Assembly (NCBI RefSeq): GCF_024502345.1
Contig: NZ_JALDNN010000001.1
Direction: 5' to 3' (one strand)
DNA from: Escherichia coli
GTDB taxonomy: Bacteria > Pseudomonadota > Gammaproteobacteria > Enterobacterales > Enterobacteriaceae
DNA length: 64,000 nucleotides
Part shown: piece by piece, positions 10,735 through 11,474 of the stretch
How positions within the stretch are numbered: the stretch's first letter is position 1
Layout of the letters: every line of letters begins with the position of its first letter
Program-made: the position numbers and the translations under genes
The notes under the pieces: generated by a model
Databases searched by the model: none
Seen by the model: only the letters and a program-made list of their open reading frames with translations
What the model was told of the DNA's origin: nothing

Positions 10735-10780
10735 TTACCTGACCCATTACCTGACCCAAAATGGGCATCGGGTCAGGTAA
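10735..10780. repeat. putative integrase arm-type sites (11-mer ttacctgaccc x2 direct + 1 inverted)
   Basis: ttacctgacccattacctgaccca (10735-10758) recurs identically at 17473-17496; inverted copy at 10770-10780. Confidence 0.55.
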
Positions 10781-10805
10781 CGCTTATCCTCAGAAAGGTA
10801 ACCTC

Positions 10806-11474
10806 ATGGCCGCTAATCTTACCGAGACTGCTATACGCGGATTGAAGACAAAAAGCACGTCGTACTACGTGTGGAGCAACAGTGCTCAGCGTGGTACCGG
10901 CAGGCTTGGCGTTAAGGTTCAGCCTTCAGGCAGCAAAGTTTTTTATTTCCGTTACTACGTTGAGAAAGGGAAGAAAGAGAAATTCATTCAGTTGGGCATC
11001 TGGCCTGAGATGAAACTGGTGACGGCCAATGAGCTGGCGAAAAAATATGGAGCCTGGCTTGTTGAAGGAAAAGAGCCGCAGCAAGAGCTTGAGCAACAGC
11101 GCCTGGCCGAACAGCACATCATGCAGATCCATCGCTCGCAGGGCTCGTTTAAAGAGCTGGTACATGGCTACGTTAACAAGATGAAGCTCGACAATAAGCG
11201 GACCTGGGCCGATGTTCTGAAGCGTCTTGAAAAAGAGTGCTATTCAGTCATTCCTCGAGAGACCAAAGCGAAGGATGTCACGCCATTACAGATCAAAACC
11301 ATCCTCTCAGGCATTATCCAGCGAGATGCGGTGGTCCATGCGAACCGAATTCGTTCCTACCTGATGGCGGCATTCAACTATGGGCTTAAAGCCGATAACG
11401 ATCCGATGAATACCAGCGTGGGCATTACGTTCGGGCTTGAAGTTAATCCGGTATCGGCCATAGCGTTGGCTTAA
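10806..11474 (+). pseudogene. truncated tyrosine integrase (P4-like N-terminal arm-binding/SAM-like part only)
   Basis: ATG at 10806 with RBS; 222 aa then stop; full P4-type integrases are ~400 aa with a C-terminal catalytic domain that is missing here; family assignment from memory. Confidence 0.7.

Follow-up and report, generated by a model that had tools for sequence, protein, structure and literature searches.

Tyrosine recombinases with a DUF4102-type arm-binding domain form a recognised subgroup, IntSXT (PMC8138268), and integrative elements at the tRNA gene ileX of Escherichia coli are already known (PMC7067040, PMC7545054), including in STEC O145:H28 (PMC7067040). In phage P4 (NC_001609) a 12-nt 'attP arm sequence repeat' is recorded as a tandem pair at 4151-4174, followed by the core at 4078-4097, a second tandem pair at 3942-3965 and an inverted copy at 3915-3926 that overlaps the start of int. 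In KplE1 (CPS-53) intS is negatively autoregulated, and the same is predicted for most integrases linked to tRNA genes (PMC2951348). The ileX element of E. coli 730V1, of about 56 kb, shares with the locus described here its insertion site, putative arm sites at both ends, a DUF4942 gene at the tRNA end and an integrase whose N-terminus is 99% identical. It differs in that only 7 kb remain here, that int is cut at codon 219 and followed by plasmid DNA, that IS5 and IS3 are present, and that the T-stem of the tRNA is another one.

The 64-kb stretch of E. coli DNA analysed here (the window) very probably contains the int-bearing end of a P4-type integrative element that has decayed to about 7 kb and occupies ileX, between nfeF and mug; in it int is truncated, repeated 11-mers are the arm sites, and the capacity for self-excision has been lost.

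The integrase fragment

The 222-aa open reading frame described by the first-pass annotation (10806-11474, with its ATG at 10806 and its stop codon at 11472-11474) is present as claimed, and its ATG is the start assigned by PGAP to the intact homologue in E. coli 730V1. An upstream ATG at 10761, which would give a 237-aa frame, was rejected: a sister lineage of the integrase (lineage 2, with ~75% DNA and 85% protein identity, found in 417 complete E. coli genomes) shows no conservation ahead of the 10806 ATG, and a 1-nt indel precedes that codon. The gene, here called int', comprises codons 1-219 of a 438-codon tyrosine integrase (10806-11462, plus strand), an assignment made from Pfam matches, fold matches and identity to WP_032669169. 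The latter is the 438-aa protein of E. coli O19:H7 730V1, annotated as a 'tyrosine-type recombinase/integrase' and encoded at the same position downstream of nfeF, and residues 1-219 are identical to it at 216 of 219 positions (99%). Alignment to this full-length integrase, which had been proposed as a means of locating the truncation, places it after residue 219 (nt 11462).

The profile search that had likewise been proposed for the 222-aa product gave the two expected DNA-binding domains, with PF13356 (Arm-DNA-bind_3, DUF4102) matching residues 5-97 at 50.3 bits against a cut-off of 27, and PF22022 (Phage_int_M) matching residues 115-195 at 26.2 bits, slightly under its cut-off of 27. The catalytic domain, PF00589 (Phage_integrase), which occupies residues 235-391 of the intact homologue, had no Pfam match in the 222-aa product. 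When the intact 438-aa homologue was compared with the whole 64-kb window by tblastn, only residues 1-219 matched, at 10806-11462, and no C-terminal part was found, in agreement with the earlier statement that no catalytic domain follows the frame. In the alignment with P4 Int, the tyrosine, the His/Arg box and the conserved Arg all fall past residue 260, and since int' ends at residue 219 all of the catalytic residues have been lost. With no Arg/Lys/His/Tyr set for catalysis, the product should be unable to cleave DNA, and the remnant should thus be unable to excise by itself.

An AF2 model of the 222-aa fragment (pLDDT 87) found its best fold matches in the arm-type binding domains 3jtz, 3ju0 and 3rmp, together with the core-binding domains of lambda Int and IntS, and its second domain matches fragments of lambda Int (75-356), IntS (87-196) and IntB (90-199). 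The structures 3jtz, 3ju0 and 3rmp are of the integrases of the HPI and HAI7 islands, which have the same PF13356 N-terminal domain; they match the predicted fold with target-normalised TM-scores of 0.71-0.81 at 25-32% identity, and differ in target tRNA and arm motif. No PDB chain was matched by a sequence search with the 222-aa product, and the relation came from the fold search. A match to the PHROG family phrog_1, 'integrase', was obtained with an E-value of 2e-45. The arm-binding and core-binding domains are thus both retained in int' while the catalytic domain is entirely gone, and because two full DNA-binding domains precede the break, it sits in the linker leading to the catalytic domain. 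With that domain missing from the product and from the entire window, the gene is a fragment of an integrase of the DUF4102/IntSXT subgroup, without the function of a full member.

The earlier assignment of this fragment to the arm-binding/SAM-like part of a P4-family integrase agrees with the PF13356 and PF22022 matches and with the near-identity to the 730V1 protein, provided that 'P4-family' is taken in the broad sense only, as the intact homologue aligns with P4 Int over its full length at just 20% identity (E 7e-11). The intact protein also scores 66.5 bits with the NCBIfam integrase model PRK09692, far under the cut-off of 434. Judged from these comparisons, the integrase appears to belong to the P4-type group in its broad sense, as an outlying member, and the copy in the window is a pseudogene fragment.

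Attachment sites in ileX and the 11-mer repeats

The sole tRNA gene that ARAGORN detects in the window is that for tRNA-Ile(CAU), ileX, at 17553-17628 on the minus strand. It matches the Rfam tRNA family at 64.9 bits, and the Rfam scan of the island gave nothing besides this tRNA. ARAGORN, Rfam and alignment with K-12 together show it to be intact and chimeric, with a native 5' part and a 3' part of 47 nt supplied by the island. The native 3' half, also 47 nt, has been displaced to 10564-10610 (minus strand), where it forms the distal att site; this segment belongs to a direct repeat, shows no difference from the corresponding half of ileX in K-12, and is still joined to the nfeF terminator. 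The direct repeat (D1) is 57 nt long, with copies 6991 nt apart from start to start. Insertion is therefore in the 3' part of a tRNA gene and bounded by a direct repeat, and in K-12 an empty site joins both island flanks. The sole block that is identical at the two ends is 19 nt long (10590-10608 = 17581-17599); it takes in the anticodon loop together with the variable region and must therefore contain the crossover. The island accordingly extends from 10609 to ~17599, a remnant of 6,991 bp.

The island-borne half of ileX carries the T-stem CCCCG/CGGGG in place of the native GCUGG/CCAGC, the changes being fully compensatory, and the elements in 730V1 and RM8352 supply a third version, GUUGG/CCAAC; all three forms of ileX fold as cloverleafs. 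These comparisons show that the element entered by site-specific recombination in the 19-nt block, exchanging the 3' 47 nt of the tRNA gene and displacing the native half. We also note a 13-nt palindrome, TTATGAgTCATAA, that lies across the island junction at 10600-10612 and of which the sister lineage retains the inner part, ATGAGTCAT; TTATGAgTCATAA and ATGAGTCAT may represent core-type integrase sites flanking the crossover.

From this junction the int-side attachment arm runs from the core to the first repeats (10609-10734, plus strand), island DNA starting at 10609. Within it, 10659-10676 is kept in the sister lineage bar one substitution (C/T at 10666), and the TATAAT at 10667-10672 is identical, which makes it a candidate for the -10 box of an int promoter; a consensus scan upstream of int called no canonical sigma-70 promoter.

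Three copies of an 11-mer, TTACCTGACCC, had been reported directly upstream of the frame, two direct and one inverted. All three are exact, but the count was incomplete, as the window has five exact copies, the other two forming a second pair at the opposite end of the island. The int-side tandem pair (10735-10745 and 10747-10757, plus strand) has a 12-nt period, as does the pair on the tRNA side (17472-17482 and 17484-17494, plus strand), and the inverted copy (10770-10780, minus strand) lies 25 nt upstream of the int start codon. With up to one mismatch allowed, TTACCTGACCC occurs 6 times in the window where 0.55 occurrences (sd 0.73) would be expected, a number reached in none of 100 shuffles. 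At two mismatches there are 15 matches where 10.3 would be expected, which adds nothing beyond chance. The near-matches found at 45544 and 45579 fall within a 386-aa open reading frame and were taken as chance occurrences. All five exact copies lie less than 200 nt from the island ends.

The two pairs are conserved well beyond their surroundings. On the int side, the pair occupies the position found in P4 and lies in a 26-nt block that is 100% conserved in lineage 2, where the next longest intergenic identical run is 9 nt; on the tRNA side, 730V1 and RM8352 share with the window a block of 27 nt at 100% identity, between diverged flanks. Taking the non-tRNA DNA around both pairs in lineage 2, the next longest identical runs are 8-11 nt. 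The inverted copy is present in 730V1 but absent from lineage 2, and it is consequently the least secure of the five; its role may be dispensable or lineage-specific. Repeat copy number is itself variable, as E. coli UTAK-6 has three tandem 11-mers on the int side instead of two.

Between the DUF4942 gene and the tRNA gene's 3' end lies a perfect hairpin, an inverted repeat with a 17-bp stem and a 4-nt loop (17510-17547, without strand). In RM8352 its stem sequence differs and pairing is kept by compensatory changes; this island-borne structure is probably a two-way terminator. If the island ends are joined, the predicted order in the circle is the pair at 17472 and 17484, the hairpin, the tRNA-like core, the pair at 10735 and 10747, the inverted copy at 10770, and the int ATG at 10806. 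The circular form would thus present pair, core, pair, inverted copy and int start in the exact order of P4.

The resemblance to P4 covers the three-domain plan of the intact homologue, the location of int directly beside attP, the use of the 3' part of a tRNA gene as the core, and the flanking of that core, on either side, by two tandem arm repeats with a 12-nt period, plus an inverted copy by the start of int. The systems differ in arm motif, (A/T)TTGGGGGCAT in P4 and TTACCTGACCC here, and in target, which for P4 is the 3' end of leuX whereas here the crossover is near the anticodon loop of ileX. P4 also has a sixth repeat inside int, of which none is seen in int', and the window copy of the integrase is without the catalytic domain. 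From position, conservation and the analogy with P4 we infer that the five copies of TTACCTGACCC are the arm-type sites of the integrase, and the function first proposed for the upstream copies gains support by comparison, given the pairs across the core, their conservation in lineage 2 and the P4 layout. No description of the TTACCTGACCC motif was found, which makes it a minor novelty in a system of a familiar kind.

Conservation of an 11-mer does not by itself name the protein that binds it, and the TorI directionality factor of KplE1 also binds tandem direct repeats in att arms (PMC2951348). The copies of TTACCTGACCC could accordingly be bound by another protein, such as an excisionase, an AlpA/Vis-type directionality factor, some other regulator of int, or a host factor. 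We regard this as improbable, though it is the strongest of the alternatives considered here: the number, orientation, 12-nt period and position of the 11-mers relative to the core and the int start are those of the P4 'attP arm sequence repeat', the integrase has a matching P4-type arm-binding domain, and the identical 11-mer has been kept by two integrase lineages whose proteins are 85% identical. Binding by the integrase is thus the preferred reading, and under it the N-terminal domain would occupy the five arm sites during assembly of the recombination complex.

The int gene reads inward from the far end of the island, directly downstream of the attachment region. As in KplE1, where the int promoter region overlaps the att arm with its integrase sites in IntS/attL, an arrangement that predicts autorepression (PMC2951348), the int-side 11-mers lie between the likely promoter (with TATAAT at 10667-10672) and the start codon, and the intact int was therefore probably autorepressed. 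These copies would probably mediate negative autoregulation of the kind demonstrated for other integrases linked to tRNA genes (PMC2951348). The two systems differ in that the KplE1 int adjoins the intact tRNA gene, whereas int' adjoins the displaced tRNA half.

Capture of plasmid DNA and decay of the island

The DNA homology to 730V1 int ends abruptly at 11462, and what follows, on the basis of alignments with 730V1 and with plasmid pNDM-MCR10, are three foreign codons, Ala-Leu-Ala, and a TAA stop (11463-11474, plus strand). Across the junction, pNDM-MCR10 reads cagcta up to the join and gcgttggcttaatcc after it, and a TA microhomology of 2 nt is all that the two partners have in common. A search for an IS end at the break found none, and the junction falls within int and within a plasmid gene alike. 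With the join lying inside both genes, TA alone shared, and no IS end, recombination at this point was illegitimate.

The captured DNA is a fragment of a Moraxellaceae-type plasmid (11463-13091, without strand), recognised by identity to plasmids and by RepM and Rep3_C matches. It is 99.6% identical to Enterobacter pNDM-MCR10 over 100% of the query, and 56-77% of the fragment is 97-99.8% identical to plasmids of Psychrobacter, Moraxella and Acinetobacter. Its minus strand contains 70 nt from the start of a gene for a kfrA-like 'DNA-binding protein', a 76-aa open reading frame resembling NDUS4, a 238-aa membrane-protein frame and a repM/Rep_3 initiator gene of which the 3' part is present. A Moraxellaceae-type piece thus resides in an E. 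coli chromosome, and the same piece is found on plasmids of Enterobacter, Klebsiella and Salmonella, including an NDM/MCR-10 plasmid. The fragment also includes an inverted repeat of 26 nt, perfect and with 12 nt between its arms (11557-11620), upstream of the kfrA-like start (11532, minus strand); it overlaps a minus-strand promoter-like site and may be the operator of the plasmid gene.

In the island, the fragment stands in place of the remainder of int and the adjoining DNA, and these alignments show that int was cut at codon 219 by an illegitimate plasmid join, with removal of the catalytic domain and of neighbouring island genes. The possibility that the 222-aa product is instead a complete protein of some other family, the outcome that would have overturned the original interpretation, or else an assembly artefact, is negligible. 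At 99% identity the product corresponds to residues 1-219, half, of an integrase of 438 aa, with an abrupt end of homology at 11462, and the junction recurs in one NCBI genome as well as in several metagenome assemblies that are independent of each other. Together these account for at least 24 public contigs that encode exactly this 222-aa product and continue into the same DNA, so the junction was not created by assembly.

The remainder of the island has been shaped by insertion sequences. IS5 (13092-14286, plus strand; 1195 bp) has a 338-aa transposase frame, terminal inverted repeats and CTAA on both flanks, and it forms the right edge of the plasmid fragment. Beyond it is island cargo (14287-15718, plus strand), identified by Pfam and by identity to other E. 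coli islands: a YfjS/YafY lipoprotein gene (14411-14863), an open reading frame at 14860-15267 and, from 15340, the 5' part of a DUF4942 gene. This segment is 99.8% identical to chromosomal island DNA of other E. coli, and from 15234 it is collinear with the right end of the 730V1 element. The collinearity is interrupted by IS3 (15719-16976, minus strand; 1258 bp), recognised also by its orfA and orfB and its terminal repeats, which splits the DUF4942 gene into 15340-15718 and 16977-17450. The 3' part (16977-17450, plus strand), the last gene of the island, contains an open reading frame at 17043-17450 that matches positions 61-189 of the Pfam DUF4942 model, and a query of 731 nt that includes this segment matches 730V1 at 84% identity.

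The island DNA that lies beyond codon 219 of int in 730V1, including a small helix-turn-helix gene, had no DNA-level match in the window. The insertions of IS5 and IS3 together with further loss have thus left a remnant of 6,991 bp, compared with ~56 kb in intact relatives. Neither the catalytic domain nor the 730V1 helix-turn-helix gene is encoded in the window, so a self-encoded route of excision was not found there, and the description of the island as locked in place, which rested on the truncated integrase, is a reasonable inference that gains from the loss of the DNA downstream of int.

Occurrence of the junction and its implications

A homologue of the integrase is present in 459 of 5,426 complete E. 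coli genomes (~8%), and the int'-plasmid junction is in none of the 5,426. The public contigs that carry int' end at IS5. On two metagenome contigs (L014 and L015) the int' junction is identical to that in the window, from which the contigs differ at 60 and 38 positions, respectively, some of them alignment gaps. Apart from two in L015, at 11591 and 11618, no difference lies above 10518; they fall in nfeR-nfeF and the 3' flank of nfeF (9065-10518). This pattern suggests either homologous recombination adjoining the remnant or spread of the remnant between chromosomal backgrounds. In E. coli GF8, YZ22PE68 and 97.3 the same integrase family occupies a second chromosomal site, beside a DUF5507 gene, where the displaced tRNA half differs by 1 nt and the target is therefore probably the other tRNA-Ile(CAU) gene. 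One integrase family seems to use both tRNA-Ile sites.

If the int' product is made, it is plausible that it could still bind the 11-mers. This raises the question of whether int' has been maintained as a stand-alone DNA-binding protein that acts on the arm sites, either repressing itself or hindering incoming elements at tRNA-Ile. Both DNA-binding domains are complete, with the break in the linker between domains, the region upstream of int' differs by 1 nt from that of the intact 730V1 element, and the identical allele is found beside diverged nfeR-nfeF flanks and on the at least 24 contigs noted above. Such maintenance is nonetheless unlikely, as the break arose when int was joined by accident to plasmid DNA unrelated to it, in a region riddled with IS elements, the junction is missing from the complete genomes, and among the 24 matches of a homologue search, most of them partial proteins and many from short contigs, there was no hint that truncation at this place had occurred repeatedly and independently. 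A stronger form of the idea would make int' a domesticated 'anti-integrase' that is expressed, occupies TTACCTGACCC, silences its own promoter and poisons the recombination complexes of related tRNA-Ile elements. We consider this more doubtful still; if it were true, int' would provide an immunity function against related elements entering or leaving tRNA-Ile sites.

On the preferred reading, that int' is the relic of an integrase whose island can no longer excise itself, the remnant would now be passed on vertically or travel when its flanks undergo homologous recombination. As neither att site is damaged, a cognate integrase supplied in trans might act on it; such an integrase, encoded elsewhere in a host, for example by a sister element at the second tRNA-Ile site, could mobilise the remnant.

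As an ordinary relic, the locus carries little weight beyond annotation, but for that purpose the limits of a degraded ileX island are now fixed at 10609-17599, and the pseudogene int' should not be annotated as an integrase. The likely arm-site motif TTACCTGACCC and the attP layout obtained for this integrase lineage could aid automated prediction of att sites. More generally, the locus is a clear case of island decay through capture of plasmid DNA and insertion of IS elements, and of a tRNA gene whose T-stem was swapped by an incoming element.
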